A DNA stretch of 64,000 nucleotides, from contig CAVRAV010000001.1 in the NCBI GenBank assembly GCA_963719165.1, positions 1,433,478 through 1,497,477 of the forward strand, written 5' to 3'. Positions 42,152 to 61,617 of this stretch are shown piece after piece (the first letter of the stretch is position 1; each line of letters opens with the position of its first letter). The position numbers were made by a program, and so were the translations under genes. Source of the DNA: an uncultured Actinomycetes bacterium (GTDB lineage Bacteria > Actinomycetota > UBA4738 > HRBIN12). A model generated the notes under the pieces. The model ran no database searches. It saw nothing but the letters and a program-made list of their open reading frames with translations, and had not been told where the DNA came from.

Positions 42152-42215
42152 GGACTAGTCATCGGTCGGGGTCCGCAGTTCCTTGAACGGCCCATACGCG
42201 TTGTACGGTAGAGTG

Positions 42216-42250: not shown

Positions 42251-42289
42251 CTACGGTCGGACCCTTACCCCTCGAACGGAGGTTCCCGG

Positions 42290-42862: not shown

Positions 42863-43334
42863 GCGCTTGCCTCGCCGTGCATTCGGTGCCGACCCCGTAG
42901 AGCGGGTCCTGTGCGCCGGCGACGAGCTTCAGGTAGAAGCACGCGCCTTCGCGCACCTGAACGGCCGCGGCCCACGTGACGCCGTTGGCGTACACGCTCA
43001 CCTCGCCGAGCCTCGAGGACGACGTGTCCGCATCCACGTAGGTCACGCCGGCACCGGGCTCCGACGAGCCGGCCAGCCCTGCGGCGTCGGCGCTCGCGAA
43101 CGAACCCGTCTCCGCGAAGACCTGTTCGGATGACGCCTGCGCCACCCGGAGGTCGTGCTGAGCGTTGCCGATGTCGTTGGGGATCGACCGGTTCGCGAAG
43201 ATCTCGACCAACAAGAAGACGCACGAGAGCCCGAGCACGCCGACCACGAGGGGGAACCCGTGCCTACGGCGGGGCTGTGGGATCCCGTCCAGCTCCCGCT
43301 CGTACGCCTCGAGGATCTCGTCGTCGTCCTGCAC
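42837..43334 (-). CDS. single-pass membrane protein with a pilin-like motif and C-terminal Cys pair (paralog of 21535-22008)
   Basis: Leader MQDDDEILEAYERELDGIPQPRRRHG followed by FPLVVGVLGLSCVFLLVEIF (reminiscent of a type-IV prepilin G/F junction). Then NDIGNAQHDLRVAQASSEQVFAETGS and C...C...W. Confidence 0.5.
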   Translation of the reverse strand: MQDDDEILEAYERELDGIPQPRRRHGFPLVVGVLGLSCVFLLVEIFANRSIPNDIGNAQHDLRVAQASSEQVFAETGSFASADAAGLAGSSEPGAGVTYVDADTSSSRLGEVSVYANGVTWAAAVQVREGACFYLKLVAGAQDPLYGVGTECTARQALTSKDDRW

Positions 43335-43359
43335 CCCGCCAGCCTACTCGCGACCCCGC

Positions 43360-44566
43360 TCAGGCGCCGAGCACGCGTCCGAGGTGCTCGAGGCTCTCCA
43401 GGTTGTGGCCTGAGAGGAACACGTCCACGCTCGGGCAGCGCGGCCGCCATCCCGCGCGCGAGCGGCTCGTAACGTGGCGAACCCTTGAGCGGGTTCACCC
43501 ACACGACGCGGTAGGCGAGCCGGCGCAGACGCGCCATCTGCAGGCGCAACTGCTCCGGATCGCCGCGCTCCAGGCCGTCGGAGCACAGGACCACCACGGC
43601 GCCGCGGAGCGCCGCGCGCTGGCTCCATCCGTCGATGAGCGCCTTCAGCGATTCCCCGATCCGGGTGCCGCCCTCCCAGTCCTGCACGCGCTCGCCGATC
43701 TCACGCAGCGCGCGGTCGGGATCGTGCGTGCGCAGGATCCTCGTGACGCGCGTGAGCCGAGTCCCGAAGCAGAAGGTCTCCACGCGTCGCCCCGCGAGCA
43801 TCGCGGCGTACGCGAACTGCATCAGCGCCCGCGAGTACGGGGCCATGGAGCCGCTGATGTCGAGGATGAGCACCAACGGGCGGCGGCGCGTCCCGCGCGT
43901 GCGCCAGGCCCGGTCGAACGGTTCACCCTGGGTCCTCAGGGATCGCCGAAGGGTGCGCCGCAGGTCGAACGTGGCACCCTTGGAGGCGGGACGAGTGCGT
44001 CGGGTCCGCTCGACCGGGACGCTGATGCTGAGGCGGCGGATCAAGGCCGCCACCCGCCGGCGCTCGTCGTCGGTGAGATCGCCGAAGGACTTGTGCCGCA
44101 GGACCTCGGACCCGCTCGCCACGATCCTGATCGCGGTGAGCTCTTCCGCCTCCTCCTGCTCAGCCTCCGCGTCCTCGTCGTCGAGGCCGTGCCACTCCGC
44201 CGCCAGAGTGCCCGCGTCGACCTCCAGCCGCGCGAGCGCGGCCGCCTCGTCGGTCACCGGCGGCGACGTGCCCACGCCGGGGATCGTGAGCTCGACGGTG
44301 AGCTCCTCGGTCTCGTGCAGCGAGTCCCACCATCGCGCGAACGCTTCGTCGAACTGCTCGAGGTCCTCGCGGCGGCCGATGAGTGTGGTCCGGGCCGCCC
44401 AGTAGAGCGCGTCGCGATCCACGAACCCCAGGGCCGCCACGGCGCGCACGAAGGTGAGGATCCGGCCGGTGCCAACCGAGAGGCCACGCGCGCGAAGATC
44501 GCGACCGAGTCCTACGAGCGGGGAGATCGGCCCCGCGACCGCGCCCGGGCCGATCGGCTCAGGCAT
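43360..44566 (-). CDS. VWA domain-containing CoxE-like protein, with an apparent 1-nt frameshift near 43440
   Basis: PLVLILDISGSM MIDAS and ...YEPLARGMAAALP. The expected C-terminus VDVFLSGHNLESLEHLGRVLGA-stop is readable in the +1 frame, ending at 43360. The unshifted ORF instead continues as R/S-rich junk to 43043, overlapping the downstream gene. Confidence 0.6.
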
Positions 44567-45437
44567 CGCCGCCGACCACGTCGGCGAGGCGAGCGAGCAC
44601 CAGCTCCTGGTCCTCGTGGTCCTTCACCACGGCGCCGAGCGTGTCGGCGGCCACGGCAGGCCCGAGCCGGGCGGCCCCGAGGAAGGCCAGGGCGTTGGCC
44701 CAATCGATCGTCTCGGCCACGCCTGGGAGCTTCGCGAGGTCCATCTCGCGCAGCCGGGCGACCGCCGAGGCCACGTCGCGGGCGAGGGTCTCGTCCACGT
44801 GCGGGGCGCGGGCGCGCACGATCTGGATCTCGCGGTCGAGGGCGGGATGGTCGATCCAGTGGTAGAGGCACCGACGCTTCAGCGCGTCGTGCAGCTCGCG
44901 CGTGCGGTTGGACGTGACGATCACCGCGGGCGGGGTCTCGGCCGCGACGCGACCCACCTCGGGGATCGATACGGCGAACTCGGACAGGATCTCCAACAGG
45001 AACGCCTCGAACTCGTCGTCGGCGCGGTCGAGCTCGTCCACGAGCAGGACGGCTCGGTCCCCCGCCTTCAGGGCGGCCAGCAGCGGCCGCTCCACGAGGA
45101 AGTCCTCGCCGAAGAGATCCTCAACGTGCGTGGCCGCGTCGGCCGCGTCCATCGCCCGCACGGCGATGAGCTGCCGCGAGTAGTTCCACTCGTACAAGGC
45201 CTGCGACGCGTCGATGCCCTCGTAGCACTGCAGCCGGATCAGCTCGCGATCGAGCAGCGTGGACAGCACCTTGGCGACCTCGGTCTTGCCGACGCCGGCC
45301 TCCCCCTCTAGCAGCAAGGGCTTGCCGAGGGAGAGGGAGAGGAAGATCGCGGTGGCCAGGCCCCGGTCGGCGAGGTACGCGTGCTCGCCGAGGGCGGCCC
45401 CGAGGTCGTCGACCGAGGTGTAGGCGAACCCAGGCAT
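44559..45437 (-). CDS. MoxR family AAA+ ATPase (CoxD-like)
   Basis: GEAGVGKTE Walker A, LLVDELDRADDE Walker B, and a C-terminal lid. The ATG at 45437 is internal to the long track ORF. Confidence 0.85.
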   Translation of the reverse strand: MPGFAYTSVDDLGAALGEHAYLADRGLATAIFLSLSLGKPLLLEGEAGVGKTEVAKVLSTLLDRELIRLQCYEGIDASQALYEWNYSRQLIAVRAMDAADAATHVEDLFGEDFLVERPLLAALKAGDRAVLLVDELDRADDEFEAFLLEILSEFAVSIPEVGRVAAETPPAVIVTSNRTRELHDALKRRCLYHWIDHPALDREIQIVRARAPHVDETLARDVASAVARLREMDLAKLPGVAETIDWANALAFLGAARLGPAVAADTLGAVVKDHEDQELVLARLADVVGGDA

Positions 45438-45478
45438 GGCGCACAGCGTATCCGAGCGGCGCGGCAGGAGCGGGCGGC

Positions 45479-46366
45479 TCAGAGGCCTTGTTCGCGCTGG
45501 GCGGCCGGGGCCACAGTGACGGGCGGGATGCGGATCCCCCGCTCGGTGATGGCCGCGCCGATGCGCTCGCGGAGTTGGCGTTCGATCTCGCTGCGCTGCG
45601 CGGGTCGCGTCTCGGCGATCACGCGGATCACCTGCGCGGTGTCGGTCGTCTGCGTGACGCCGAGGATCTCCGGCTCCTTGCGCAGCCCGCTGTGGAACGG
45701 CTCGAGGTCCACGACGGATCCGAAGACGTCTTGCAGCGCCTCGCGCACCTTCTCCGGATCCTCGTCGATGGCCACGCGAACGTCGACGATCGCTCGCCCC
45801 CACCCGCGGGTGCGGTTGCTCGTGATCTGGATCAGCCCGTTCGGGACGACGCTCAACGTGCCGTCGAAGTGGCGCACCGCGGTCACGCGCAACGTCAGAC
45901 CCTCGATCGTGCCCGACACCTGGCCACCCTCGGTCTCCAGATCCACGAGGTCGCCGACATCGAACTGACCCTCCAGCAGGATGAAGAGGCCGGTGATGGT
46001 GTCGCGCACCAGGGACTGGGCGCCGAAGCCCAGCGCCACGCCCGCGATCCCCGCGCTGGCGACCAACGCGCCCACGCTCACCCCGAAGCCCTGCAGGATC
46101 GTGATCGCGACGGTGAACCACACGATCACCGCGACGGTGGCCACCACGAGGCTCGCGACGGTGGCGGAGCGCCGCGCCTTGCGCCCTTCCAGGTCGCCCG
46201 CGGACTGGGCCCGCCGATGCAGGCGCCGCGCGTACCGCCTGCCCACGACGGACACGAGCAAGCCGAAGACGACGAGGGCCAGGCACAACAGAGCGAACCG
46301 GAACCATTCGGCGCTGGTTCGATCGGGAAGGATCGCTGCGAGGATGCGGGTCACCGGCCCATCCAA
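45479..46366 (-). CDS. mechanosensitive ion channel family protein (MscS-like)
   Basis: 3 TM plus a beta-domain: GTIEGLTLRVTAVRHFDGTLSVVPNG. Confidence 0.85.
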   Translation of the reverse strand: MDGPVTRILAAILPDRTSAEWFRFALLCLALVVFGLLVSVVGRRYARRLHRRAQSAGDLEGRKARRSATVASLVVATVAVIVWFTVAITILQGFGVSVGALVASAGIAGVALGFGAQSLVRDTITGLFILLEGQFDVGDLVDLETEGGQVSGTIEGLTLRVTAVRHFDGTLSVVPNGLIQITSNRTRGWGRAIVDVRVAIDEDPEKVREALQDVFGSVVDLEPFHSGLRKEPEILGVTQTTDTAQVIRVIAETRPAQRSEIERQLRERIGAAITERGIRIPPVTVAPAAQREQGL

Positions 46367-46518
46367 CTAGGGGAACCACCTCCCGTCAAAGACCGACCCG
46401 AAGGGAGAAGGGGGAAGCCGCATGGCGGCCGCGTAGCCGGGACAGAGCGCACATGGAGTAGGAGCACGAGGCTCGACGATCAACGAGAGACTCGACGACG
46501 CGATCACACGTTTCGACC

Positions 46519-46821
46519 ATGTCGGCAACCTTTCCTCCTGTGGTGCACGATGCGGCGATGCAGGTGAGCGATGCCGAGGGGCTCGAACGAACCTACCGAG
46601 ACCAGGCTCCGGCGCTCTGGCGCTCACTCGTCGCGTACACCGGGGACCGGGATATCGCGAGCGACGCTGTGGCCGAGGCCTTCGCCCAGGCGATCCGTGC
46701 CGGTGGTGGGATCCGCGACCGCGAGCGATGGTCTGGAAGGCTCCTCTTCAGCCGCGAATCTCGACACCAGACATGCGTCGCCCGTGGGTCCCTGCGAGAC
46801 GGGGTCAGGCTACCGCCTTGA
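46519..46821 (+). pseudogene. ECF sigma-70 factor N-terminal (region 2) fragment
   Basis: ERTYRDQAPALWRSLVAYTGDRDIASDAVAEAFAQAIRAGGGIRDRERW matches sigma-70 r2. The sequence then diverges, and the reading frame runs into the convergent hydrolase gene. Confidence 0.45.
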
Positions 46822-47659
46822 GGAACTGTGTCCATCGATCCCGGTCGACGAAGCCGTAGTGCCCCGCCCCGGGCCAAACATGCCCTGTGCCATGAGGGAG
46901 CTCCTCGGCCACCCGCTTGGGCATCTCCGGGGAGACGATGTCGTCGGCGTCTCCATAGAAGACGTCGAAGGGCTGCTTCACGTCCTGGAGCCCGAATCCC
47001 CAATCCCATAAGGCCAGCGTCATCTCGTAGGTGCCCTCGCCGTGCTGTTGCATGCCCTGCTCGAAACTGGCTTCGAACATCTCGCGTTGGGCCGGATCGT
47101 CGAGCATCGTGGCGGCATCTGAGGGGTCGTCCTCGGTGACGGATTCCACGTAGCTGGGAACGTCCTTCAGGATCTTCCTCGACTCGCTCTTGTTGGCCCA
47201 TCGCAAGAGGTGGTGGAGCCTGTGGATCTTGGCGATCTGCTTGAGGTCCTTCATCACGAGCTGTTTCCGCATGAACGCGTCGTCGAAATCCCCTACCGGT
47301 GAGGCCAGCACCCCCCGAGAGACGCGATCGGGCAGGTGGTACGCGACGGCGAGGGCGTGCGGTGCGCCTCCCGAATGGCCCGCGACGACGAAGCCTTCGA
47401 GGCGTACGTGATCGGCCAACTGCTCGATATCCGGACCCCAGTCCACGATCTTGCGACCCGGCTGAGGCGAGGAACCGCCAACGCCGGGTTGGTCGGGAGC
47501 GATGAGCCGCACGCCCAGCGAAGCGGTCAGTCGCTCGTCTGGATTGCGGATAAGGCGCGAGTCGCCGAAACCGTGCGTGAAGATGATCGGCGTTCCCGCA
47601 GGATCGCCGTACTCATCGTAGGCGAGCGTCCGGCCATCGGCGAGCTCCATCGTTTCCAT
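46805..47659 (-). CDS. alpha/beta hydrolase fold protein
   Basis: HGFGDS...GHSGGAP nucleophile elbow. Noticeably lower GC and different codon usage than the flanks. Confidence 0.8.
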   Translation of the reverse strand: METMELADGRTLAYDEYGDPAGTPIIFTHGFGDSRLIRNPDERLTASLGVRLIAPDQPGVGGSSPQPGRKIVDWGPDIEQLADHVRLEGFVVAGHSGGAPHALAVAYHLPDRVSRGVLASPVGDFDDAFMRKQLVMKDLKQIAKIHRLHHLLRWANKSESRKILKDVPSYVESVTEDDPSDAATMLDDPAQREMFEASFEQGMQQHGEGTYEMTLALWDWGFGLQDVKQPFDVFYGDADDIVSPEMPKRVAEELPHGTGHVWPGAGHYGFVDRDRWTQFLKAVA

Positions 47660-48025
47660 CTAAGCTCCTCCCACCGACTCGAGGTTGCGGGATCACGGAC
47701 GGAGCATCCGATCCAGCATAGGCGAGAGTAGTCGTGCACAGCCCTCGCATCGCGGCCACGTATGTGGGGGCAACCGCCACGATCACGGCCATGATCACGC
47801 CGACCGTCCTCGCCCACACGGCTCCGGAAAGGACCCCGAACCCAGCGAGCAGGATGATCAACCCCAGCGCCATGTGGATCCATCCCCAAGCCGACGTGTT
47901 GAAGTGGAACACATAGTTTGGGGTCACCGCGTAGAAGTCCTTCTTGAAGAGGCGATCATCCGCAGCGAGGACGGCAAGCTCAAGACGGTGACCAACACCC
48001 ACGCCGTCGGGGCGGGCAGCGCGGC

Positions 48026-48318
48026 ATGTTCTGGGGGTTGCTCTTCGGGATCTTGGTCTTCATCCCGTTCCTGGGGATGGCCGTGGGGGCGGGCATGGGC
48101 GCGCTGATGGGCAAGATGGGCAAGACCGGCATGGACAAGCATTCCAAGACCAGGTCCGGGAGATGTTGCAGCCCGGTACCTCCGCGCTGTTCATCGTCTT
48201 CGAGAAGGTCACCGCCGACAAGGCGCTCGACGCCCTGTCGAAGTTCGGCGGTACCGTCCTGAAGACCTCGCTGTCGGACGAGGCCGCCGCGGAGATCAAC
48301 AAGGAACTGCACGGCTAA
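48026..48318 (+). pseudogene. DUF1269-like small membrane protein gene, frameshifted at ...gacaagcattccaag...
   Basis: MFWGLLFGILVFIPFLGMAVGAGMGALMGKMGKTGMDKH in one frame. It continues as FQDQVREMLQPGTSALFIVFEKVTADKALDALSKFGGTVLKTSLSDEAAAEINKELHG in the +1 frame. Upstream remnants (...EEAIIRSEDGKLKTVTNTHAVGAG) are in a third frame. Confidence 0.45.
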
Positions 48319-48446
48319 CTCGACCCCCAAAGGTCCTCCGCATCGGCTAGCGAGAAGATCCCGGCGCCGACCATCGCCCGACACCGATGAACGCGGCTTG
48401 GCGGACGGTGTAGCGCCGCTCGGCCGGCGAGGAGGTGGAGGTCGAT

Positions 48447-51206
48447 TCAGCCACCGTCGTTCACCGCCACGAGGCTGCCGGCTGCCTCCCGTTTTCGCGA
48501 CCGGGCCAACCGGACGGTCTTGTCGATCCAGACGATCCCCGGAGCGATCAACGACAGCAGCAACACGGTGCCCCATTGCTTCCCCGAGAGCGATACCGTG
48601 TCGAGCAAGCGTTGGAGCATGCCCAGCTCGACGGCCGCCCACGTGAGCGCCCACCCCAGGATGATCCACCCGAAGTACGGGAAGATCGGTGACGACCACA
48701 CGGGCTCCCGCTCCCTCCGCATCACCACCCCGAAGTTCACCGCGCTCATGGCCACGATGGCGAAGGCCATCGTCATCGATATCGAGGGGAGCGTGGTGCT
48801 CGGCTCGTCGGGCCCCCACTCGAGCACCGCGAGCGCACTGGCCGCGACCGCGAAGCCACTGATCGCCCATCGCACGATCTGTGGGCCGGTGACGATCTTC
48901 GTCCCGGGCCTGCGTGGTGGTCGCTGCATGACGCTGGGATCGGGGACGTCGGCGATGAACCCGATCACGACGGTGACGACGACGAAGAACTTGCAGAACA
49001 ACAGCTGCATCGGGAACAGCGCGACGCCGCCGTTGATGTTGAGGATCGTGGCGAGCAGCATCAGCTGCAGCACCGACGAGAGGATCGTGAGCTGCAGTTT
49101 CACGTACGACGTGATCCGCCGGTAGATGTCCCGGCCCAGGTCGATCGCCTTGACGAGCGTGGCGAAGTTGTCGTCGGTGAGCACGATCTTCGCGGCTTGC
49201 TGCGTCACCTCCGAGCCGCTCCCCATCGCCACGCCGATGTCCGCCTGCTTGAGGGCCGCGGCGTCGTTCACGGCGTCCCCGGTCATCGCGACCACGTTGC
49301 CCGCCTCCTGCATCAGGCGAGCGAGCCGGACCTTATCCTCGGGGGCCACTCGCCCGAAGACGTGGAGCTCCGGGAGGCGCTCGACGACCTCGGCGTCCGG
49401 GAGGTGCGACAGGTCGGTCCCCGTGATCACGCCGGGCCCGAGACCGAGCTGATCGGCGATCGCGCGCGCCGTGACCGTGTGGTCGCCCGTGATCATCCGG
49501 ACGTCGACGCCGGCGCTCAGGGCGATCCGCACCGCATCCTTGGCCTCCGCGCGGAGGGGGTCGATGATCCCGACCAGCGCGACCAGGACCAGGTCCGAGA
49601 CGGCTTCCATCGGGTCGTCGATCGCCGCCGTCATCGCCGAGTCGTCGAGGTCGCGGGCGGCGAACGCGAGCACACGCAGCCCCCGCTCCGAGAGCTGCTG
49701 GTTCGCGGCAAGGATCTCGTCGCGGACCTCGTCGATCGGGGTCGTCTCCCCGTGCCAGAGCGCCCGGTCGCACCGCTCGATGACGACGTCGGGCGCGCCC
49801 TTGACGCTCATGAAGTGTGGGTGCTGGATGATTCCGCTCACGAGATGCTCCGGGACGTCGTGGAGCGTGGCCATGAACTTGTATCGGGAATCGAACGGCA
49901 CCTCCGCGCGGCGCGGGATCGTCCGCCGCGTCTCCTCCGCGTCGACCCCGGTCTTGGCGGCGAGCACCACGAGGGCGGCCTCCGTGGGGTCGCCGATGAT
50001 CGATCCGTCGTCCGCCACGGTCGCGTCCGTGCACAGGCACAGGCCGAGCGACAGTCGCCGGAAGTCCGGCGATGGCTGGCCTCCCGCTGCGAGGACCGCA
50101 CCCGTCTTCTGGTAGCCGCCGCCCTCGATCGTGTACCAGTCGCCCCCGGTGAGCATCGAGGTGGCCGTCATCGCGTTCATCGTGAGCGTCCCGGTCTTGT
50201 CGCTGTTGATGACGGTCGTGCCGCCGAGCGTCTCGACGTCGGTCAGCGTCTTGACGACCGCCTTCGACTCGGCCAGGCGTTGCGCACCCGACGACAGCAT
50301 CGCCTGCACGAACGTGGGGAGTCCGACCGGGATCGATGCGATCGCGGTCGAGATGCACAGCAGCAGCAGGGTGTCTCGATCCTGGCCCCGCGCGATGCCC
50401 ACGATCGCGATCACCGCCACGGCCGACCAGGCGAGGACGCCGAAGACCTTGGTCAGTCCGTCCAGCTCCCGCTGGAGCGGGGAGCGTGAGCGCTTCGTCG
50501 CGCTGACCATGTCCGCGATGCGGCCCATCTGCGTCGACTGTCCGGTCGCCGTGACGATGGTGGAGGCGGAGCCGCGGGTGACCTGCGTGTTCTGGAACAC
50601 CATGTCCGTGCGGTCGCCGAGGGCGACGTCGTCGCCGGCGATCGGGGTCGTGTCCTTGGGCACGGGTGCGCTCTCCCCGGTGAGGGCCGCTTCCTGGACC
50701 TCGACCGTCGCCGCGGAGACGAGCCGCCCGTCGGCCGGAACCAGATCACCAGCCTCGAGCAGCACGACGTCGCCCGGCACGAGCTCCCGGGAGTCGATCT
50801 CCTCGGTGCCGGCCGATCGCCGGACGCGGGCGTGAGGCACCTGGAGCTGCGAGAGTGCCTCGACGCTGGCTCGGGCCTTCAGCTCCTGGCTCGACCCCAT
50901 GATGACGTTGAACGACACGAGACCGAGCACGAAGAGCCCGGTGGCCACCTGACCGATCACGAAGCTGGCCACGGCGACGATCAACAACATGATGTTCATG
51001 GGGTTCGAGAGCTGCCCGCGCGCCACTGCCCAGACGCTCGGCGCCGGCTCCGTCGGCAGCTCGTTGGGCCCGTACGTGGCGCGTCGTCGCGCGACCTCCT
51101 CGGCGTTCAGCCCTCGTTCGGGATCCGTCACCAACCGTGTGGCTACCTCGGCTGCCGAAAGGGCATGCCAAGGGATGCGTTCCGACGCTTCCTCGGTCCT
51201 GCTCAT
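48447..51206 (-). CDS. cation-transporting P-type ATPase (P2-type, Ca2+/Mg2+-ATPase-like)
   Basis: DKTGTLT phosphorylation site, TGDAVNDAAALKQADIGVAMG hinge, 10 TM. 919 aa. Confidence 0.95.
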   Translation of the reverse strand: MSRTEEASERIPWHALSAAEVATRLVTDPERGLNAEEVARRRATYGPNELPTEPAPSVWAVARGQLSNPMNIMLLIVAVASFVIGQVATGLFVLGLVSFNVIMGSSQELKARASVEALSQLQVPHARVRRSAGTEEIDSRELVPGDVVLLEAGDLVPADGRLVSAATVEVQEAALTGESAPVPKDTTPIAGDDVALGDRTDMVFQNTQVTRGSASTIVTATGQSTQMGRIADMVSATKRSRSPLQRELDGLTKVFGVLAWSAVAVIAIVGIARGQDRDTLLLLCISTAIASIPVGLPTFVQAMLSSGAQRLAESKAVVKTLTDVETLGGTTVINSDKTGTLTMNAMTATSMLTGGDWYTIEGGGYQKTGAVLAAGGQPSPDFRRLSLGLCLCTDATVADDGSIIGDPTEAALVVLAAKTGVDAEETRRTIPRRAEVPFDSRYKFMATLHDVPEHLVSGIIQHPHFMSVKGAPDVVIERCDRALWHGETTPIDEVRDEILAANQQLSERGLRVLAFAARDLDDSAMTAAIDDPMEAVSDLVLVALVGIIDPLRAEAKDAVRIALSAGVDVRMITGDHTVTARAIADQLGLGPGVITGTDLSHLPDAEVVERLPELHVFGRVAPEDKVRLARLMQEAGNVVAMTGDAVNDAAALKQADIGVAMGSGSEVTQQAAKIVLTDDNFATLVKAIDLGRDIYRRITSYVKLQLTILSSVLQLMLLATILNINGGVALFPMQLLFCKFFVVVTVVIGFIADVPDPSVMQRPPRRPGTKIVTGPQIVRWAISGFAVAASALAVLEWGPDEPSTTLPSISMTMAFAIVAMSAVNFGVVMRREREPVWSSPIFPYFGWIILGWALTWAAVELGMLQRLLDTVSLSGKQWGTVLLLSLIAPGIVWIDKTVRLARSRKREAAGSLVAVNDGG

Positions 51207-51451
51207 CTCTCTGTCCTCCGTGCGGATCGGTCGACGAGTTCATCCTCACGCGGCCTGGGTACATCTGTCCGGGTGAGGTACTCGTAGCGACGCTTGACGA
51301 ACAAGCCCTGGTCCATCCGTCGGGAACGTATCGAGTCTGCCCACGCCACCGCAAACGGAGCCGAAGCGCATTCACGGCGCTGGTGCTCCTCGCGTTCGCG
51401 ATTGGGCGCGGCATAGAGTGGCAACGTCGTTTCAAGGGAAGGGAGGTACCC

Positions 51452-51877
51452 ATGAACGTTCAGGATGGGATCGGAAGCGCGCCTGGGGTGGATGCGGGCC
51501 GTCGACCGTTCGGCCAGCTCGTGGCATCGGTCGTCGGCGGGTTCGGCACCCTCGCACGCCAGCACCTCGATCTGGCCAAGATCGAGGCTGCGGAGGCCGC
51601 AGCGGTCCGAGGCAAGGGTGCCGGGATGATGGCGGGGGCGGCGGTCGCCGCGATGTACGCGGTCGGTTTCATCGCCGCCGCAGGGGCGGCCGCGCTCGCC
51701 TTGGTGTTGCCGGTGTGGGCGGCCATCCTGATCGTGGCCGCCGTAATGCTCGTCGTCGCGTGGGTGCTCGTGATGCTCGGGCGTCGCACGATCAAGTCAG
51801 CTCCCGCGCCGAGCGAGCGAACCCAGGAAAGCCTGAAGGAGGACATTCGATGGCTGAAGCAGCAGATCAAAAGGTGA
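51452..51877 (+). CDS. Holin-X / phage holin family protein (DUF1469-like, actinobacterial)
   Basis: LARQHLDLAKIEAAEAAAVRGKGAGMMAGAAVAAMYAVGFIAAAGAAALALVLPVWAAILIVAAVMLVVAWVLVMLGRR, then SLKEDIRWLKQQ. This matches the Holin-X architecture: amphipathic helix, two TM, coiled C-terminus. Confidence 0.7.
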   Translation: MNVQDGIGSAPGVDAGRRPFGQLVASVVGGFGTLARQHLDLAKIEAAEAAAVRGKGAGMMAGAAVAAMYAVGFIAAAGAAALALVLPVWAAILIVAAVMLVVAWVLVMLGRRTIKSAPAPSERTQESLKEDIRWLKQQIKR

Positions 51878-52092
51878 CGGAGATCGGCGACAGCCGGCGT
51901 CAGCTCGAGACCGACCTCGTCGAGCTCGAGGCGCGTCTGCCGACCTCGCTGCGGTCGTCGAAAGCCATGGCCGGCCTCCTCGTGGGCAGTGGCGCCGTCG
52001 CCGCACTGGTCCTGCGCAAGCGCCGCTCGAAGCGCTCGGCCTCGCCTCCCGCCGCCGAGGTCGTGGTACGCATCGTGCGCGACGACCTCTAG
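51850..52092 (+). CDS. DUF3618-like small protein, the usual Holin-X partner
   Basis: MAEAADQKVTEIGDSRRQLETDLVELEARL..., then a TM segment AMAGLLVGSGAVAALVL and a basic tail. Overlaps the holin 3' end. Confidence 0.55.
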   Translation: MAEAADQKVTEIGDSRRQLETDLVELEARLPTSLRSSKAMAGLLVGSGAVAALVLRKRRSKRSASPPAAEVVVRIVRDDL

Positions 52093-52264
52093 CCCCGCGG
52101 CCGTCGCCTCGGCGCTGAAGGACTGCTCCGCGTCGTGGGAGTGAGGCTCGTCAGAACGGCGTCCGGACATGCTGCAAGGGCAGATCCTGAACGGCTTCCG
52201 CCGGACGTGGTGGCTACACTAGGCCGTCCTCGGCGATGTCCCCGGCCTCCCGGGCTTCCACGAC

Positions 52265-52651
52265 ATGGCGAGCCATCCCGACGCCGCGGCGTCCCCCGGG
52301 CTCGTGCCGTTCCGGTTCGATGCGCCGCTGATCTTCGCGAACGCACGAACCTTCAGCGAGCAGATCCGTGAGCTCGCGAACGGACCGGGGGTCCGTTGGA
52401 TCGTGATCGCCGCAGAGCCGATCACGGATGTCGACACCACCGCCGCCGATATACTCGAGGACCTCGACGAGTGGTTGAATGCCCATGGCATCTCCCTCGT
52501 CTTCGCGGAGATGAAGGACCCGGTACGCGGCAAGATCACCCGGTACGAGCTCACTCGGACGATCGATCCGACCCACTTCGACCCCACGATCCACGCCGTC
52601 GTGACCGCCTACTACGACCTGGATGTCGGGACGCCCGATCCCGCGCCCTGA
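52265..52651 (+). pseudogene. SulP-type STAS domain remnant (C-terminal fragment of a sulfate permease family transporter), or a stand-alone STAS protein
   Basis: LVPFRFDAPLIFANARTFSEQIREL...WIVIAAEPITDVDTTAADILEDLDEWLNAHGISLVFAEMKDPVRGKITRYEL matches the SulP C-terminal STAS. No transmembrane part is present upstream. Confidence 0.5.
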
Positions 52652-52964
52652 CGGGTAGCCATCCGCCGATCGGTCCGCCGCCGCCTGCACTACCCGAAGC
52701 CAGGTGCGTGGTCCCCCTCGGAGCCGCGACTCCGTCTCATCGCCCACTCGTCAGATGGATGGCGACGTCGAACACTCGAGTCAACGTCGTCCTTCCCGCG
52801 CGATCACCGGGCCCGAGGTTCGGTCCAGCCTCATCTATGGCTGAGTCCACCGGGGAACGTAGACGGTCCGTCTGTGCATCGCAAGAGCGGGTAGCCGACC
52901 CACCCGTCATGCCGGTCCCCCGAAGCCAGCTCGATGCTCACTACACTCAAGGAGACAAAGCGAG

Positions 52965-53432
52965 GTGTTCTCCATGGGGTCGAACGTTCAGGCGGATGTG
53001 CCGATGAGGCCGGATGTGGCGACGTACCCCGGCAGGATACTCGCGGCGATCTCGGCCGGCATCGCGTTCGTCATGGTCGTCGTCTATCTCCTCGTGATCC
53101 GAAGCCAGGGCGACGGCATGGGCATTCGCGTGTTCGTGGTTTCGTCCTGCATCGCAGCCGCCGGCGCGTGCGCAGCGGGGGCGTCTTGGTCCTCCTCCCC
53201 GCAACGTCGACTCGTATTGATGGCTGCGGCGGCGGGAGGGCTGATATCGCTCGGCATCATCGGGATGTGGTCCATCGGGTTCCCCCTGTTCGTCGCCGGG
53301 GTACTGATGACGGTCGGGTCGCTGCGGATGGCACCTTCGGTAGAACGCTCACGAGGCTCCCGTCTCCGGGCACTGGTAGCCGGAATCATGGCGTTCCTGC
53401 TGCCCGTGGCGATCCTGTTCACTCCCCGCTAG
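52965..53432 (+). CDS. hypothetical 4-TM membrane protein
   Basis: Hydrophobic segments with coherent codon usage. No family recognised. Confidence 0.45.
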   Translation: MFSMGSNVQADVPMRPDVATYPGRILAAISAGIAFVMVVVYLLVIRSQGDGMGIRVFVVSSCIAAAGACAAGASWSSSPQRRLVLMAAAAGGLISLGIIGMWSIGFPLFVAGVLMTVGSLRMAPSVERSRGSRLRALVAGIMAFLLPVAILFTPR

Positions 53433-53719
53433 ACCCGCATCCCTGGTCGGTGAGCCTTCGGATCGATCGACTCTGAGGCCCTCGCAGGTGCTAGGCCATC
53501 GGGTTCCCGCTCCGTGGGGGCGACGCAGACGCTACGGCTCAGCCGGGACCGTGCGTTAACGGCGGCGGTCCGCACACGAGCGAATCGGGTCCTCGGTAGG
53601 CAGGGGCAGGTGCGCAGGCTCGGAGGCCGACCGGGATGATCAACCGGTATCGCGCCTCACCGACGTGGTAGTTCAACGCGACACCCTCGAACGTGCCCCG
53701 CCCGCCGCCCTCCGCTACC

Positions 53720-54140
53720 AGCCCGATGAATAGCTGTAAGGGATGCGGCTCCGCGTGTCCGCCTGGGGGCACGGGGAACCCCTCGAGCGGCTCATAGGGT
53801 TGGGGAACGGTGGCGGGTACGTTGCCGCGCCATCTCTCTTATCGATCGAGCGTCCCTCGAAGAACGCGACAACGGTACCGACGAGGTGAATCTGATCGGT
53901 GCTGTTCACCAATTCCACGGAGTCGAGAACCGCGTCTTCGTCGCCACGGTTGCGATCATGACGTCTGAGAACGTGAATGGGTGCCTGGTGGAGACCAACC
54001 TGGACGTCGCGTAGGCGTCCGCCCGGGCTCCTTCGCTCGCGGCGAGAGGGCCCGTTCCGCTCGACGACGAGCAGCTGATCGGAAGCAGGGCCAACAGCAC
54101 CCAAACGACCAGGGCGTGTTGGCGTTCATGACCCATTCGG
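53720..54140 (-). pseudogene. possible lipoprotein gene remnant split over two frames
   Basis: Frame 1: MGHERQHALVVWVLLALLPISCSSSSGTGP... (a lipobox). Frame 2: ...DAVLDSVELVNSTDQIHLVGTVVAFFEGRSIDKRDG. Confidence 0.25.
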
Positions 54141-54596
54141 CTTCCGCTTGTTCCCGCTCGGATCGGTCCGCGGGACACGGACGATCTAGTAGAAGTCCTC
54201 TCCATCGGCGGATTCAAACACGCGGAACTCGGGCCCGTTCACCCGCCGAATCACGGTCGCGCTCCTCACAGCCAGGAGTCAGGGACATCGAACAGACGCG
54301 CCACTGACCGACAAGGATCGAGGAGAGCGGCGAGCCTGGGGCCGCAGCTATCATGGTCGCGATGAGCATCAGCATGCATGCGAGCATCCTGCCGCGCACC
54401 GATCTGGCCAGGGCGGCCGCACCCTCGGCCTCCTCGCTACCAAGGGCGCCCTCGAGGGCCAACGAGGAGCGAGGCCGTCGTCGTCCAGGGAGCGCATGGA
54501 GCAGGCGTGGGGTTCGCCCACTGCGCCGGCCGCGACCGCGCCGGCAGCCTGAGCCGCGTCAACGAGCGCGGTAACGTCCGAAGGAGGCGCCTCGAG

Positions 54597-55090
54597 ATGG
54601 CTGAGAAGAAGCCAGCGAAGAAGACCGCCGCACGGAAGTCAACGAAGCGCACCACCGCCACCACCAAGAAATCGGCGGGATTCTCGGACGAAGAACGAGC
54701 GGCGATGAAGGCTCGTGCCCAGGAGATGAAGGCGGAAGCGCGCGCCAAGAAGAACCGGGGGGAGGGGAACGCGCCGCGGTCGCGGCGATCGCCGCGATGT
54801 CGGAACCGGATCGCTCCATGGCCAAGCGGCTCCATGCGATCGTCCAATCCAGCGCGCCCGACCTCTGGCCGAAGACCTGGTACGGGATGCCGGCGTATGC
54901 CAAGGACGGCAAGGTCGTCTGCTTCTTCAAGAGCGCCGAGAAGTTCAGCTCGCGCTACGCGACGTTCGGCTTCGAGGAGGCGGCCAACCTCGACGAGGGC
55001 GCGATGTGGCCGACCTCCTATGCGCTGAAGGAGCTGACCGCAACCGATGAGAAGAAGATCGCCGCCCTCATAAAGAAGGCGGCGAGCTAA
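54597..55090 (+). pseudogene. DUF1801 domain protein gene with a Lys-rich N-terminus, frameshifted inside a G6 homopolymer (~54755-54760)
   Basis: [25 protein letters not shown]...AKKNRGEG in the first frame. It continues in the +2 frame as ...[88 protein letters not shown]. Confidence 0.55.
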
Positions 55091-55225
55091 GCCCCAGCTC
55101 CTGAACCTGCACGGCGCTCCGCTGCCCACGACCGAGCTGCTTCGCTCCCGCTCGGTGCTCGGCAGGTCCGTGCCCTACCCCGGGCGGCCTGTTTCCCGTC
55201 CGGCGGTGGCGGCCTCCGTCGCTTC

Positions 55226-55870
55226 CTACCGGGTTCTCTCGGGGAGCGTCGAGGCGCCGACGTTGGCATCGAGCCAGGCACGGAGCGGCCTCGATGCCTT
55301 GAGGAACTCCACCACCCTGTCCTTCGCCCGGGCGGTCCCGAGCCAGGCGCCCACCGGCCACGAACGCCACGCGACGATGCCCTTGTACCGCAGGAGCTCG
55401 ACCCGCGGGTGGTCCTTCGCGTAACCGCGCGGTGCCGTCTTCAACTCGCCGTGCGCCATGATCTCCGCGTCCGAGGCCCGCGCCTTCGCGACCACCGACG
55501 CCAGCTTCTTACCGGATCGATCGTCGTCCACAGCCTCCCGGTAACGCTCGAGCTGATCGGGAGCCATCTCCCACATGCCGCATCCGGCCGCGAGTCCGCG
55601 TGCATCGAGCTGGACGTAGCCCTCGCCGAGCATGGCCGCGATGTTCGTCTTGTACGGCGACTTGTCGCGGCTGAACCGCAGGTCCCGGTAGGGCCGGAAG
55701 ATGCGGCCCTCGCCCCACTGGGATTCCAGGTCGGCGAGCAACGCCTCCATCGGCGCGCGCACCGCGGTCTCGTACACATCCTTGTGCCGTTGCCAGTACG
55801 GCTTGGAGTTGTCGGCTTCGAGACCCTCGAAGAACTCGAGGGCCTCGGCGGGCCAGCCCCTGAACGCCAT
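55226..55870 (-). CDS. DUF2461 (TIGR02453) family protein
   Basis: FFEGLEADNSKPYW...RIFRPYRDLRFSRDKSPYKT hallmark. Confidence 0.75.
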   Translation of the reverse strand: MAFRGWPAEALEFFEGLEADNSKPYWQRHKDVYETAVRAPMEALLADLESQWGEGRIFRPYRDLRFSRDKSPYKTNIAAMLGEGYVQLDARGLAAGCGMWEMAPDQLERYREAVDDDRSGKKLASVVAKARASDAEIMAHGELKTAPRGYAKDHPRVELLRYKGIVAWRSWPVGAWLGTARAKDRVVEFLKASRPLRAWLDANVGASTLPERTR

Positions 55871-55871
55871 C

Positions 55872-56936
55872 TCAGCCCGCCTTGGCGAACGCGCGCAGGC
55901 TCGCCTTGAGTTGCGAGCCGCTCAGCGCGATCGCGCCGGAGTCGAAGTTCACCGTCACCGTCCCCGCCGACCATGCCTCGGGAGTCTTCGTCTTGATGCA
56001 ATGACGCCCGTGGTGGACCGACGAGGCCCCGTCGGTGAACCGCAACGTTCCTGAGGCGAGCGGCGCCATGTCGGCGGCCTTCACGAGGAATCCCGTGGGC
56101 GTCTTCCGCGCCGGGCGCCCGACGGCCGAGGCCGTCATGCTGTGATCCACGGTTGCCGGTGCGATCCGCTCCACCTGCTCGAACCCGACGGAACCCGCTC
56201 CGAGGGGAGCGAAGACGGTGGCAAGCTGCCCCGCGTCCTGCGCCCTGAACGTCGAGCCGCGGAAGCACCCATGGGGCCGCGGCGACTCGTTGGGGCATCG
56301 CTTGCCCGATAGGAAGAACCGTCCGGCCTGACCCTTCATCGACGTGGCGGCCAGGTCGGGCAGGGTCCCTTCGTTCGGGGTGAACGACAACGTGCCCGTG
56401 AGGGTGCCTCGGCGAACGATCGTCGATTGGAGGACTTCGTGCGTCTTGGGGCAGCGGTACGAGTGCGTGCGGGCGGGTTGGTTCCCGGCGAACGTGAGGT
56501 CGATCTGACCGAACGGGCCGAGGCCCGAGCCGGTGCGCAGGCGCGCCTTGTGCAGGCGGGCGCCCACCCGGAGCGCGCCGGCCGGGAGCTGGAAGAACCA
56601 GGTGTGGGCCTGATACCCGTTGGTCACCTGTTGGTAACCCGACACGATGACGATCGTCCCGCCGCGCACGTCGCCGGCGCCCACCTGCCACCGGTAGGGG
56701 GACCCCGGCATCTTGAACATGCCACCGACACCCACCTGTGTGGTGGGCCTGCCGCGCGAGGCTCGCGTGAGCATGCGCACGCGATCGAGCGGAAGGGCCC
56801 GAGCGTGCCGCGCCACCCGGTGGATGGCCGCGGTCCGAGGCGCTGCCAACGGAGGCGACGCGACCGCAGACGCGGAGCCGAGGACGACCACGAGCGTCGA
56901 GCAAATCACGACCAGTCGGTGCGCACGTAGCTCCAT
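55872..56936 (-). CDS. secreted hypothetical protein
   Basis: N-terminal signal peptide and Cys pairs. No family recognised. Its stop is 2 nt from the DUF2461 start. Confidence 0.5.
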   Translation of the reverse strand: MELRAHRLVVICSTLVVVLGSASAVASPPLAAPRTAAIHRVARHARALPLDRVRMLTRASRGRPTTQVGVGGMFKMPGSPYRWQVGAGDVRGGTIVIVSGYQQVTNGYQAHTWFFQLPAGALRVGARLHKARLRTGSGLGPFGQIDLTFAGNQPARTHSYRCPKTHEVLQSTIVRRGTLTGTLSFTPNEGTLPDLAATSMKGQAGRFFLSGKRCPNESPRPHGCFRGSTFRAQDAGQLATVFAPLGAGSVGFEQVERIAPATVDHSMTASAVGRPARKTPTGFLVKAADMAPLASGTLRFTDGASSVHHGRHCIKTKTPEAWSAGTVTVNFDSGAIALSGSQLKASLRAFAKAG

Positions 56937-57020
56937 GGGTGAGACGGTAGCTCGCCGGCCTCGCCCTCACAAGGGAGCCCTGGCCTCCGGCGCGCCCGGC
57001 CGACCTGGGAGCATGGCGAC

Positions 57021-58073
57021 GTGACCCGGCGTCCCCACGACCCCGCCATCCGCCTGCTTCGACAACGCCTCACGAGCCAGCTGCTGGCCGGCCCTCGAGC
57101 GCGCGACCCCCTCGACGTGGTCGAGCGGCTCCTAGCGGTGCAGGGACAAGACGCCCGCGGGGCGCGGCTCGCGATCCGGTCCCGCTCGCGGGGGCTGACC
57201 GCCGGCGACGTCGATCGCGCGCTCACCCAAGATCGGTCCATGCTCATCACCTGGCTGAACCGCGGCACCCTGCATCTGGTGCGCACCCAGGACTACCACT
57301 GGCTCCACGCGCTCACCACGCCCCAGCTCGCCACGGGGAACGCCCGCCGCTTGCGCCAAGAGGGAGTCTCCGAGCGCGACGCCGACCGAGCCGTCCGTGC
57401 GATCGTTCGAGGCCTCGAGGCCGACGGGCCGCTCACGCGCTCCGAACTCGGCGAGCGCGTGAGCGCCACCAACGTGCGGACCCAGGGCCAGGCGCTGATC
57501 CACATCCTCCTGCTCGCGAGCCTGCGCGGCCTGATCGTGCGCGGTCCCATGGTGGGCTCCCATCACGCGTACGTGCTCACCGCGGATTGGCTGAGGCCCG
57601 CACCCGCGGTCGATGGTGAGCGGGCGACCGCCGAGCTCGCCCGTCGGTTCCTGATCGGCCACGGACCCGCAGACGATCGCGACCTCGCTCGCTGGTCCGG
57701 ACTCACCCTGGGCCGGGCGCGAGCCGGCATGCGCGCGATCGCGACGGAGCTGAAGGAGCGCCCCGACGGTCTCGTGCAGCTCACGAAGCGACCGCGAACG
57801 GCCGCCTTGCCCGGACCCACGCTGCTGGGCTCGTTCGATCCGGTGCTGCTGGGGTGGACCTCGCGCGAACCCATCCTCGGGGCGGCCACGCACATCGTCA
57901 CCAGCAACGGGATGTTCCGCCCCTTCGCCATGATCGAGGGAATGGCCGCGGCGACATGGACCCTGCCCGGCGGCGAAGTGAAGCTCGACCCGCTTCGCGA
58001 CCTCACGCCGCGCGAGCGCGACGCGCTCGATCGCGACGGTCGCGACGTGAGGCGCTTCCTCCGGGCGACCTGA
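57021..58073 (+). CDS. winged-helix DNA glycosylase of the YcaQ/AlkZ (HTH_42) family
   Basis: Length ~350 aa, LAVQGQDARGA (a Q-x-Q-type catalytic motif as in AlkZ), multiple WH repeats, and a C-terminal KLDPLRDLTPRERDALDRD. GTG start. Confidence 0.65.
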   Translation: MTRRPHDPAIRLLRQRLTSQLLAGPRARDPLDVVERLLAVQGQDARGARLAIRSRSRGLTAGDVDRALTQDRSMLITWLNRGTLHLVRTQDYHWLHALTTPQLATGNARRLRQEGVSERDADRAVRAIVRGLEADGPLTRSELGERVSATNVRTQGQALIHILLLASLRGLIVRGPMVGSHHAYVLTADWLRPAPAVDGERATAELARRFLIGHGPADDRDLARWSGLTLGRARAGMRAIATELKERPDGLVQLTKRPRTAALPGPTLLGSFDPVLLGWTSREPILGAATHIVTSNGMFRPFAMIEGMAAATWTLPGGEVKLDPLRDLTPRERDALDRDGRDVRRFLRAT

Positions 58074-59868
58074 GCCCCTTCCCGCTCGAGAGCGCCGGGC
58101 TTCCGCCGACGCTGCGGTACAACAAGACGCCACCGATCCGCCGCGGATGCGCGCCGAGCGCGGCGTCGAGGAACGGGGCCCAGGTGCGAACGGATCCCGT
58201 CATCACCACGATCGCCCCCACGTGGTGCTGTCGGAGCCAGAGCCGGAACCGATCGGGCGCGGGCGGGAGCCGGCCCGTCTGCACGCCCTGCCACAGGCGG
58301 TCGGCCTCGAAGGCCTCGGGCTCCGGCCCCGTATGGCCCTGGGGCATCGAGAAGGCGAACCCGCTCTGCTCCTGCAGCACCATCTCCAGGCCGCGACTCC
58401 TGCGGTCGTGCACGATCAGGATCGTCTCGTTCGGCGTCAACACCCGGCGGTACAGCCCGGCCGAGAAGAACCGCGGCGCGTCGATGGGTCGGTGCAGGCC
58501 CGCCTCGTGCACGTTCGGGATCAGCAGGAGGACGCCGAGTCCCACCGAGCCCCAGCGCACCGTCGAGTCGAACGCGCTCTTCGTGGGCCGCGGCCTCGAC
58601 AACCATCGAGCCACGATCAGGGCGACCCCGAGCCACATGTACATCGTCAACCGGTCGGGCAGGACGTTCATCAGGATCGGCGCGCGGGCCGGAACCGACC
58701 ACGGCATTGGGATCGTCCGGTGCGGGCCCACGAACAACACCGCCCCCATCGACAGGACGGCAGCGAGGGCTACGAAGGCGAACAGCCAGCGGGTGACCCG
58801 CTCACGACGCCCCGCGATGAACGCGGCGGCAAGGACGAGGAGCAACACGGGGCCGAGGTAGGCGCCGTCCTCGCTCACGTTCGTGGGAAAGCGATCCGTC
58901 AGCCGCGCGAACGCGGCGCCGCCCACCAAGGTGCCGTGGCGCGGGATCAGGAAACTGAGCAGATCGCTCGATGACCCGTCGATCCCGCGGATCGGCCCAG
59001 AAGGCAGTCCCGCCGCCGCGTACCAGAGATAGGGCGCGAGCACCGCGGCGGCCGCACCGCAGGCCACGATCGTGGGCCCCGCGGCGGTCCGCAGGAGCGG
59101 CCGCGTCGACGGCATCGCCAGGTAGGCCGTCAGCGCCGCCATGCCCGCGAACATCGTCATGCTCGCGAAGACCTCCGTCGAGATGGAGAACTCCGCGACC
59201 AAGACGGCGGTGAGCAGCAGCACGTACGACCGCCTCGAGAGGCGGCCGTGGACGTATCGCAACACGAGGTAGGCGGCCAGCGGCACGGGAAAGACGAGGA
59301 ACAGGTTCATGTGCCCGCGCATCTCCGCGAATTGGTAGGTCGAGAAACCGAACACGACGCCGCCCATGACGGCGGGCCAGAAACGACGCGTGACCTCGCG
59401 ACACAGGAGGTACGCGGCCCACGTGGCGAGCGCGGGCGAAGCGACCGCGATCGCGTTGGACGTGGCCACGGCGCCGAACGTCGCCGTGAGCGGCCACGCG
59501 GCGAGCGAGGGGCCGGGCAGCCCGGTGACCCACGCCATGTTCACGCCGGTGGGCGCCCATACGAGCGTGGGGTGGAACGGATTCAGTCCCGCGGCGATGG
59601 CGTGGGGCCACCAGGCCAGATCCCAGACGTAGAGCTTCGCGTCCGCGCTCCCCTGCCCCACGAACGACGTCGAGAAGCGCCCGAGGATGGGCACGGCGTA
59701 CAACAGGAACGAGCCGACGACGGCGCCACCGAAGACGCACCACGCGCGTCCGACGGAGCCCAGCGCGACGAACCACCGGTGCCGGGGAACGGGTGGCGCG
59801 CCCACCATGCCGTCGTCCACCCGAAGCGCCGGTGCCGGACCTGCGAACTGGGGGAAGCCGGGCGGCAC
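58003..59868 (-). CDS. large polytopic membrane protein (GT-C-like / YfhO-like fold?)
   Basis: About 12 predicted TM segments. No specific family recognised. The 3' end overlaps the convergent glycosylase gene by 70 nt, and the last ~40 codons are R-rich. Confidence 0.5.
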   Translation of the reverse strand: MPPGFPQFAGPAPALRVDDGMVGAPPVPRHRWFVALGSVGRAWCVFGGAVVGSFLLYAVPILGRFSTSFVGQGSADAKLYVWDLAWWPHAIAAGLNPFHPTLVWAPTGVNMAWVTGLPGPSLAAWPLTATFGAVATSNAIAVASPALATWAAYLLCREVTRRFWPAVMGGVVFGFSTYQFAEMRGHMNLFLVFPVPLAAYLVLRYVHGRLSRRSYVLLLTAVLVAEFSISTEVFASMTMFAGMAALTAYLAMPSTRPLLRTAAGPTIVACGAAAAVLAPYLWYAAAGLPSGPIRGIDGSSSDLLSFLIPRHGTLVGGAAFARLTDRFPTNVSEDGAYLGPVLLLVLAAAFIAGRRERVTRWLFAFVALAAVLSMGAVLFVGPHRTIPMPWSVPARAPILMNVLPDRLTMYMWLGVALIVARWLSRPRPTKSAFDSTVRWGSVGLGVLLLIPNVHEAGLHRPIDAPRFFSAGLYRRVLTPNETILIVHDRRSRGLEMVLQEQSGFAFSMPQGHTGPEPEAFEADRLWQGVQTGRLPPAPDRFRLWLRQHHVGAIVVMTGSVRTWAPFLDAALGAHPRRIGGVLLYRSVGGSPALSSGKGLRSPGGSASRRDRRDRARRARAA

Positions 59869-61567: not shown

Positions 61568-61617
61568 CCAAGTCCTCCCCCGTTGACGGATCTGGGCGCG
61601 AGTCCGGGCTCGCTCGT

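Follow-up and report, generated by a model that had tools for sequence, protein, structure and literature searches.

A probable gene-turnover hotspot holding acquired, eroding genes between MscS and DUF2461 in an uncultured soil actinobacterium

Background

Hotspots without recognizable mobile elements, in which homologous recombination is frequent at the flanking core genes, have been described previously (Oliveira, Touchon, Cury & Rocha 2017, PMC5635113). In this study, we analysed a stretch of 64,000 nucleotides from an uncultured Actinomycetes bacterium (hereafter the window; positions 1,433,478 to 1,497,477 of contig CAVRAV010000001.1, assembly GCA_963719165.1), concentrating on the slot at 46412-55223 between the genes for MscS and DUF2461. 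This slot is most probably a gene-turnover hotspot, i.e., a flexible genomic interval holding acquired and eroding genes. It resembles the hotspots described by Oliveira and colleagues in its syntenic core borders, its unrelated content in relatives, its atypical composition, its lack of integrase and transposase genes and the possible signs of recombination in its flanking core genes. It differs from them in that the locus shows only two fillings and in that its cargo is rich in pseudogenes, six or more genes being broken within 8.8 kb.

Classical genomic islands and prophage remnants are similar to the interval in their strain-specific DNA, their deviating G + C content and the presence of a holin-named family, but the locus in the window lacks an integrase, a tRNA and att repeats as well as gene families of phages. 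A sequence-only reading of the same DNA, made from the letters and a list of open reading frames (ORFs), had marked the stretch from about 46.4 to 55.1 kb as a decayed accessory region of lower G + C content.

Different contents between conserved borders

The closest relative, GCA_038249195.1 (contig JBBRWM010000008.1, 100,660 bp; approximately 92% nucleotide identity in the flanks), was reached via the 90%-identity clusters of MscS and of the CO-dehydrogenase medium subunit encoded at 61.6 kb. The MscS-side and CoxM-side loci of this genome, which lie on the same contig, were merged and compared with the window by blastn. The borders and the aligned segments are as follows.

45482-46366, minus strand: MscS, conserved left flank gene
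46412-55223: variable interval between MscS and DUF2461; 8,812 bp that replaces a non-homologous 10,262 bp in the closest relative
55226-55870, minus strand: DUF2461, conserved right flank gene
35469-46411 against GCA_038249195.1: 91.5% identity, collinear
55224-60086 against GCA_038249195.1: 84.9% identity, collinear
61608-64000 against GCA_038249195.1: 93.5% identity, collinear

Between 46411 and 55224, no blastn alignment to the relative was obtained, although the DNA on both sides (35469-46411 and 55224-64000) is collinear with it. Both junctions are abrupt: on the upstream side of MscS, 45 nt separate the left one from the start of that gene, and the right one is at the DUF2461 stop. The sequence-only reading had proposed that alignment with relatives would define the boundaries; the homology breaks, at 46411/46412 and 55223/55224, fall within about 30 and 120 bp of its estimates, and a wholly different 10.3 kb occupies the slot in the relative. 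The products of that segment include a 256-aa protein, an ECF sigma factor, a beta-propeller protein, PpoB2, DUF1326, a dynamin-like GTPase, DUF6062 and lipoproteins. Remnants of its 12 genes were sought in the window and none was found. The sole weak cross-match between the two fillings is the sigma factor, and at only 43% amino-acid identity the fragment in the window is not an orthologous leftover. The relative's segment is itself atypical, with 66.3% G + C compared with 70.8% in its flanks, and with a G + C content at third codon positions (GC3) of 0.59-0.88 compared with 0.90-0.93.

In two more distant loci, L082 and L083 (MscS identity 65-73%), the left flank is also syntenic and the synteny with the window stops at the same point, MscS; the tblastx comparison with these loci was dominated by high-GC noise. 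Thus, the fillings of the two close genomes are non-homologous (8.8 kb and 10.3 kb) and the distant relatives differ again, within a sample of few close genomes. A scan of genome contigs based on the ATPase gene of the interval returned only non-syntenic loci, none from a close relative of the host, and a metagenome scan based on DUF2461 returned one short locus (L086) in which AlkZ adjoins and the DNA beyond is unrelated.

Composition of the interval

The G + C content of 46380-55100 is 66.8%, compared with 70.1% in the remainder and 69.7% in the window as a whole, and this is the lowest value among all 8.7-kb blocks, the minimum block starting at 46401. The tetranucleotide distance from the window mean is also higher across 45-54 kb. 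The drop is modest and uneven, with 64.6% at 46380-48446, 68.6% in the ATPase gene and 66.6% at 51240-55100. In the genes of the region other than the ATPase, GAT accounts for 0.38 of Asp codons and GAA for 0.24 of Glu codons, with 4.9% Lys and a GC3 of 0.837; the corresponding values in the flanking genes are 0.18, 0.12, 2.1% and 0.904. The ATPase shows no codon shift (GC3 0.917, host-like). Therefore, the visible fall in G + C content and codon usage claimed for the whole stretch holds for about two-thirds of it, as a G + C minimum and an excess of A/T-ending codons, but not for the ATPase. In a codon-likelihood scan, the longest stretch lacking a coding signal in the whole window was at 52.6-54.8 kb.

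The window contains another GC-poor spot at 29414-33649 (64-67% G + C). This is an ABC-transporter operon (solute-binding protein, two permeases and ATPase) with a GC3 of 0.94 and a strong coding signal, and its low G + C content stems from amino-acid composition, not from foreign origin. As this operon at 29-33 kb is equally GC-poor and yet has a native GC3, total G + C content alone is misleading, whereas GC3 is diagnostic.

Gene content of the interval

Genes and remnants were mapped by a six-frame Pfam search with stops masked as X and by tblastn with intact homologues from the fetched loci. The best-preserved comparable cluster is L172 (ENA ERZ25039456, contig_18071), which carries the closest ATPase, P0264 (93.5%).

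46519-46821, plus strand: ECF sigma-factor fragment; the homologous part, 46579-46749, corresponds to residues 8-64 of a 156-aa sigma factor
46805-47659, minus strand: intact alpha/beta hydrolase, 284 aa, GC3 0.80; Abhydrolase_1 E=2.7e-18, positions 2-244 of 245
47772-47945, minus strand: DUF7144 fragment, residues ~82-139 of a ~176-aa protein, both ends missing
47981-48315, plus strand: DUF1269 pseudogene; N-terminal ~42 residues missing, 1-nt deletion near 48130
48359-48454, minus strand: amino-acid permease stub, first 32 codons; 66% identity to residues 1-32 of the L001 permease (tblastn)
48447-51206, minus strand: intact type II P-type ATPase, 919 aa, GC3 0.92, by Pfam architecture and motifs
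51452-51877, plus strand: intact Holin-X (Phage_holin_3_6) membrane protein, 141 aa; Pfam positions 1-116 of 116, E=1e-27
51850-52092, plus strand: 80-aa ORF, conserved partner of Holin-X, overlapping the Holin-X stop by 28 nt
52108-52183: deletion junction; ~2.9 kb of an L172-like arrangement gone (SulP N-terminus, PPK2, PAP2)
52184-52651, plus strand: SulP C-terminal remnant with an in-frame stop, residues ~437-580 of ~570-606, including STAS
52965-53432, plus strand: small four-helix membrane protein, 152-155 aa, likely start near 52974
53433-54596: stretch with low coding potential and no six-frame Pfam match, holding a lipoprotein-like ORF at 53906-54217 (minus strand)
54597-55090, plus strand: DUF1801 gene, full length but frameshifted, with Shine-Dalgarno and ATG; 1-nt deletion in G6/G4 runs at ~54752-54768

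Most of the genes named in the sequence-only reading were recovered, i.e., the sigma-factor fragment, the alpha/beta hydrolase with a near-full Abhydrolase_1 profile, the DUF1269 gene with its homology split over two frames, the intact P-type ATPase with complete Pfam domains, Holin-X with its full Pfam profile, the SulP STAS remnant, the hypothetical membrane protein, which has full-length homologues, and the frameshifted DUF1801 gene. Two of its labels failed. The ORF at 51850-52092, called DUF3618, had no match in Pfam (E<=1) or NCBIfam, DUF3618 included, yet it is a conserved partner of Holin-X; and for the supposed lipoprotein remnant at 53906-54217 (minus strand), the homology search detected no homologue. 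The DUF7144 fragment and the permease stub had been overlooked.

In the left part of the interval, the sigma-factor fragment (45.6% identity to the L082 sigma factor by tblastn; Sigma70_r2 positions 2-39 of 71, E=0.004) is cut after region 2, and region 4 is missing. Homologues of the hydrolase with 82-86% identity lie in unrelated contexts, one of them (L166) beside IS110 transposase fragments. This hydrolase is also 65-66% identical to P0156 and P0192, proteins of Calycomorphotria hydatis (a planctomycete) and Endozoicomonas elysicola (a gammaproteobacterium), and such unusually high conservation across phyla suggests a wide horizontal spread of the family. The DUF7144 fragment matches positions 23-86 of 115 of its Pfam profile (E=2e-18), and tblastn with intact homologues agrees. 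In the DUF1269 pseudogene, two frames match residues 43-101 and 77-160 of homologues of 164-168 aa, and the 1-nt deletion lies outside any long homopolymer. DUF1269 and DUF7144 each lack the 5' end where they face one another.

In the right part, Holin-X is 82% identical in amino acids to its L172 homologue, and the 80-aa ORF is 86% identical to the equivalent overlapping ORF of L172. Neither these two nor the fragments had a match in PHROGs, where only a generic esterase match and one marginal match (E=9e-4) were obtained, and the pair is better viewed as small membrane proteins. The SulP remnant was delineated by tblastn with three intact SulP proteins and covers STAS positions 2-104 of 106 and positions 449-564 of 565 of the NCBIfam sulP model; the Sulfate_transp domain was not found by Pfam anywhere in the region, which thus lacks a SulP transporter architecture. 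Within this remnant, the ORF at 52265-52651 has an ATG start, a GC3 of 0.87, a coding signal and a near-full STAS profile, and it is a gene in the source annotation; it may be a stand-alone STAS protein or merely a young remnant. The small membrane protein is probably intact. A phmmer search with it returned P0282 (152 aa, 66% identity over the full length) and 148 more matches, and its closest homologue (66%) lies on another contig of the relative, with the similarity confined to the gene. The C-terminal part of the DUF1801 product is 67% identical to the L030 homologue (Pfam DUF1801, E=0.004).

The P-type ATPase

The ATPase shows the Pfam domains Cation_ATPase_N, E1-E2_ATPase, Cation_ATPase, Hydrolase and Cation_ATPase_C and the catalytic motifs TGES176, DKTGT336, MITGD571 and TGDAVND642, with IPVGLP in M4. 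SERCA-type pumps have the M4 motif IPEGLP, in which PEGL carries the Ca2+-site glutamate. In domain architecture and in the TGES, DKTGT, MITGD and TGDAVND motifs, the ATPase is similar to the Ca2+ ATPases of the SERCA/PMR1 type (IIA), but it differs from them in M4 and in its scores. In NCBIfam, only the generic TIGR01494 was above its own cut-off; the best scores came from the IIA Ca2+ families, with 507.8 bits for TIGR01522 (cut-off 798.3) and 464.5 bits for TIGR01116 (cut-off 703.4). As these equivalog cut-offs are missed and the PEGL glutamate is absent from M4, the protein is not placed in type IIA and no transported ion is assigned to it.

At the nucleotide level, the ATPase gene is 92.2% identical to that of L172 and 87.7% identical to that of L001. 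Its 90%-identity cluster has 29 members, compared with one to three for the flanking core genes. More distant homologues (71-77% identity; loci L001-L080, 80 GTDB species) are spread across Thermoleophilia, Acidimicrobiia and Actinomycetes.

Relation to a recurrent gene neighbourhood

In L172, the ATPase lies beside DUF1269, PAP2, SulP, PPK2, PAP2, the 80-aa ORF and Holin-X, and three blocks of the window match this locus at the DNA level: 48447-51170 (the ATPase) at 92.2%; 51438-52107 (Holin-X and the 80-aa gene) with L172 17460-16790 at 83.5%; and 52183-52653 (the SulP C-terminus) with L172 13903-13434 at 79.8%. The order and orientation of the latter two blocks are as in L172, and the deletion of 2.9 kb between them relative to L172 accounts for the truncation of SulP. 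DUF1269 is a further point of likeness, but in the window it is truncated and of a different subtype. The window also differs from L172 in lacking PPK2, both PAP2 genes and the SulP N-terminus, in having the ATPase on the opposite flank of the Holin-X pair, and in an ATPase 3' flank of the L001 type, marked by the permease stub. In L001, the permease directly follows the ATPase, and the blastn match with the window runs over 48349-51234. The ATPase of L001 and L046 lies inside an arginine-deiminase cluster; when the genes of that cluster were sought as remnants in the window, only the permease stub was found.

Fifty-four ATPase loci from a range of Actinomycetota had complete flanks; of these, 27 contain PPK2, 19 SulP and 16 DUF1269. 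As these genes recur near it, the debris in the window represents usual neighbours of this ATPase family. The closest relatives of the cargo blocks, at 80-93% nucleotide identity, lie in other genomes and in unrelated contexts. Taken together, the atypical composition in both genomes and the homologues elsewhere argue for horizontal acquisition of the content, and the interval appears to be a patchwork of gene-sized blocks, each with a separate history.

Entry and decay of the acquired DNA

The six-frame Pfam search (46300-48520 and 51100-55500, E<=0.01) revealed no integrase, recombinase, transposase or phage structural gene; the DNA between the two searched segments is occupied by the ATPase gene. 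No tRNA or tmRNA was found at the interval edges by ARAGORN and Rfam, the only real tRNA of the window being at 10308-10378. An ARAGORN call at 48393-48479 ('tRNA-???', with a two-base anticodon) was rejected as spurious; it has no Rfam match and overlaps the ATPase stop and the permease stub. At the borders, the search for direct, inverted or att-like repeats yielded only short matches at chance level. The sequence-only reading had likewise noted neither mobility genes nor flanking repeats, and had called for a search for att-like repeats at both ends.

At 4-fold degenerate sites, the background genes diverge from the relative by 19.5% (337/1731). The divergence reaches 36.9% (106/287) in DUF2461 and hyp354 (Fisher P=4e-10 against background), 31% in AlkZ and 27.7% in MscS (Fisher P=0.013 against background); these values come from a two-genome comparison and are not a recombination test. 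Such an excess of synonymous change next to the interval points to replacement through homologous recombination. Given this excess and the absence of integrase, transposase, tRNA and att repeats, we infer that DNA enters the slot and is swapped by homologous recombination in the flanking core genes, where tracts imported from more divergent donors would leave a higher synonymous divergence. The contents of the slot are rearranged and trimmed, as in the 2.9-kb deletion, the reduction of the permease to 32 codons and the truncation of sigma, DUF1269 and DUF7144, and point lesions come on top, namely the SulP stop codon and the 1-nt deletions in DUF1269 and DUF1801. Selection may retain the useful genes, i.e., the putative cation-pumping ATPase, the hydrolase, the Holin-X/80-aa pair and the small membrane protein, while their unused neighbours would undergo deletion.

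The remnants carry at most one disabling point lesion each and have a GC3 of 0.79-0.91; the truncation thus appears to be fairly recent rather than old erosion. The 1.2 kb at 53433-54596 may be older than the other debris. The proposal of an old, horizontally acquired or recombination-prone region undergoing erosion is accordingly borne out in its replaceable slot, the foreign contexts of its homologues and the gene-by-gene erosion, but not in its age, given the single lesions and the high GC3.

Several points weigh against the interpretation as a hotspot. The hotspot rests on one close relative, hence two fillings, together with the distant L082 and L083, and the direction of events could be gain in the window or loss in the relative. 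The synonymous excess of the flanks could come from gene-specific mutation or selection. As the sequence probably comes from a metagenome assembled from long reads, single-base frameshifts are uncertain. In addition, relative to L172 the ATPase is found on the opposite flank of the Holin-X pair, so that either order may be ancestral.

Alternative explanations

We consider it very unlikely that the decay is a sequencing or assembly artefact, arising from erroneous indels and chimeric joins when a metagenome-assembled genome is built from long reads. The related loci are named 'contig_N' and have ENA accessions of the form ERZ2503xxxx, as is usual for the Nanopore-only assemblies of Microflora Danica, which were polished with a single Medaka round (PMC12313526). 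The DUF1801 frameshift sits in G6/G4 runs, and there it could be a long-read error; an uncompensated 1-nt indel occurs outside the region, at 43430 in the 3' end of VWA; and genes are split in sister assemblies (VWA in L082, the ATPase in L068 and SulP in L172). However, indel errors are unable to yield fragments missing hundreds of codons, as in SulP, sigma, DUF7144 and the permease, or a substitution that creates a stop, and the DUF1269 deletion is not in a homopolymer. An independent Logan contig (run ERR11718635) matches 45279-47252 at 100%, spanning the left junction and the sigma fragment. Furthermore, in the alignment of approximately 18 kb of flank with the relative, nearly every indel of a length not divisible by three is intergenic or compensated, and the VWA indel is the only uncompensated one within a gene on the window side.

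Equally hard to sustain is vertical inheritance with differential loss, in which a larger ancestral region contained the genes of both fillings and the two lineages lost different portions of it, without any transfer. Deletion is demonstrably active in the interval, no mobility machinery was found, the remnants keep the high GC3 typical of Actinomycetota, and the distant relatives also have sigma and DUF1801 genes near MscS. Against these stand the fillings themselves, which share no orthologous sequence despite about 92% identity in the flanks and are both compositionally atypical for their own genomes. Blocks of the window are moreover 80-93% identical in nucleotides to genes in unrelated contexts elsewhere, and neither the size of the ATPase cluster relative to those of the flanking core genes nor the excess synonymous divergence of those core genes fits this scenario.

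That the interval is the remnant of a self-mobile element (a prophage, an integrative element or a transposon-borne island) with its mobility genes lost is likewise very unlikely. The Pfam name Phage_holin_3_6, the atypical composition of the region and the IS110 fragments adjoining the L166 homologue of the hydrolase point in that direction, and the 1.2 kb at 53433-54596 could conceal unrecognisable element debris. None of the expected genes was seen in the six-frame search, though, nor were an edge tRNA or border repeats found; Holin-X and its partner belong to no PHROGs family; and one border falls where a gene ends and the other upstream of a gene, unlike an att-like site. Genome-wide reductive pseudogenisation is rejected, since the flank reading frames are intact relative to the close genome except for one indel.

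We return, then, to the replaceable slot with acquired and eroding contents. A more far-reaching version of it, which we put forward as a speculation with low odds, is that the ATPase, PPK2, SulP, DUF1269 and the Holin-X/80-aa pair would form an ion- or phosphate-homeostasis cassette that has no mobility genes of its own and is spreading in soil Actinomycetota. The slot between MscS and DUF2461 would be a preferred landing site, in which recombination in the flanks exchanges such cassettes and trimming leaves one selected gene, and the IPVGLP ATPase would represent a new transport specificity.

Other indels in the flanking DNA

A second indel relative to GCA_038249195.1 lies at 60087-61607 and concerns the gene at 60002-61567 (minus strand), which encodes a 521-aa alpha/beta hydrolase (Abhydrolase_1 with a TAP-like C-terminus) between DUF6311 and the CO-dehydrogenase medium subunit and is absent in the relative. 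Within it, 64 nt (60199-60262) are 100% identical to intergenic DNA of the relative, and on a JGI contig the gene for this hydrolase adjoins CoxM with at least 90% identity. The adjacent DUF6311 gene at 58003-59868 (minus strand) is one intact 621-aa ORF in the window, while a 1-nt difference at window position 58657 splits that of the relative (L170 11196-12910) into genes of 396 and 183 aa.

On the left side, the VWA CoxE gene at 43043-44566 (minus strand) shows a 1-nt length difference at about 43430, 22 codons before the expected stop, which turns a 401-aa protein into a 507-aa ORF overlapping the next gene (42837-43343). A genuine frameshift at the 3' end or an indel of the assembly could account for this. 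Between NAGPA and tryptophan 2,3-dioxygenase, L082 (15642-18882) and L083 (11815-14087) carry a Fer4/CCG-domain oxidoreductase together with an APH kinase or a phosphoesterase, and the same gap measures only about 100 bp (40629-40733) in the window and in the close relative, i.e., it is a lineage-specific indel.

Significance

The conceptual addition made by this locus is small, as such hotspots and their pseudogene debris are already well documented. For annotation, the STAS ORF, the sigma ORF and the DUF1269 and DUF1801 pieces are fragments or pseudogenes and should not be recorded as functional genes. The interval nevertheless offers a base-resolved case, in an uncultured soil actinobacterium, of accessory DNA that is exchanged in a slot with conserved flanks, without genes of mobile elements, and is then gradually reduced; an intact homologous cluster makes it possible to place single deletion junctions. 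The recurrent neighbourhood of the ATPase with PPK2, SulP and DUF1269 may merit functional study.

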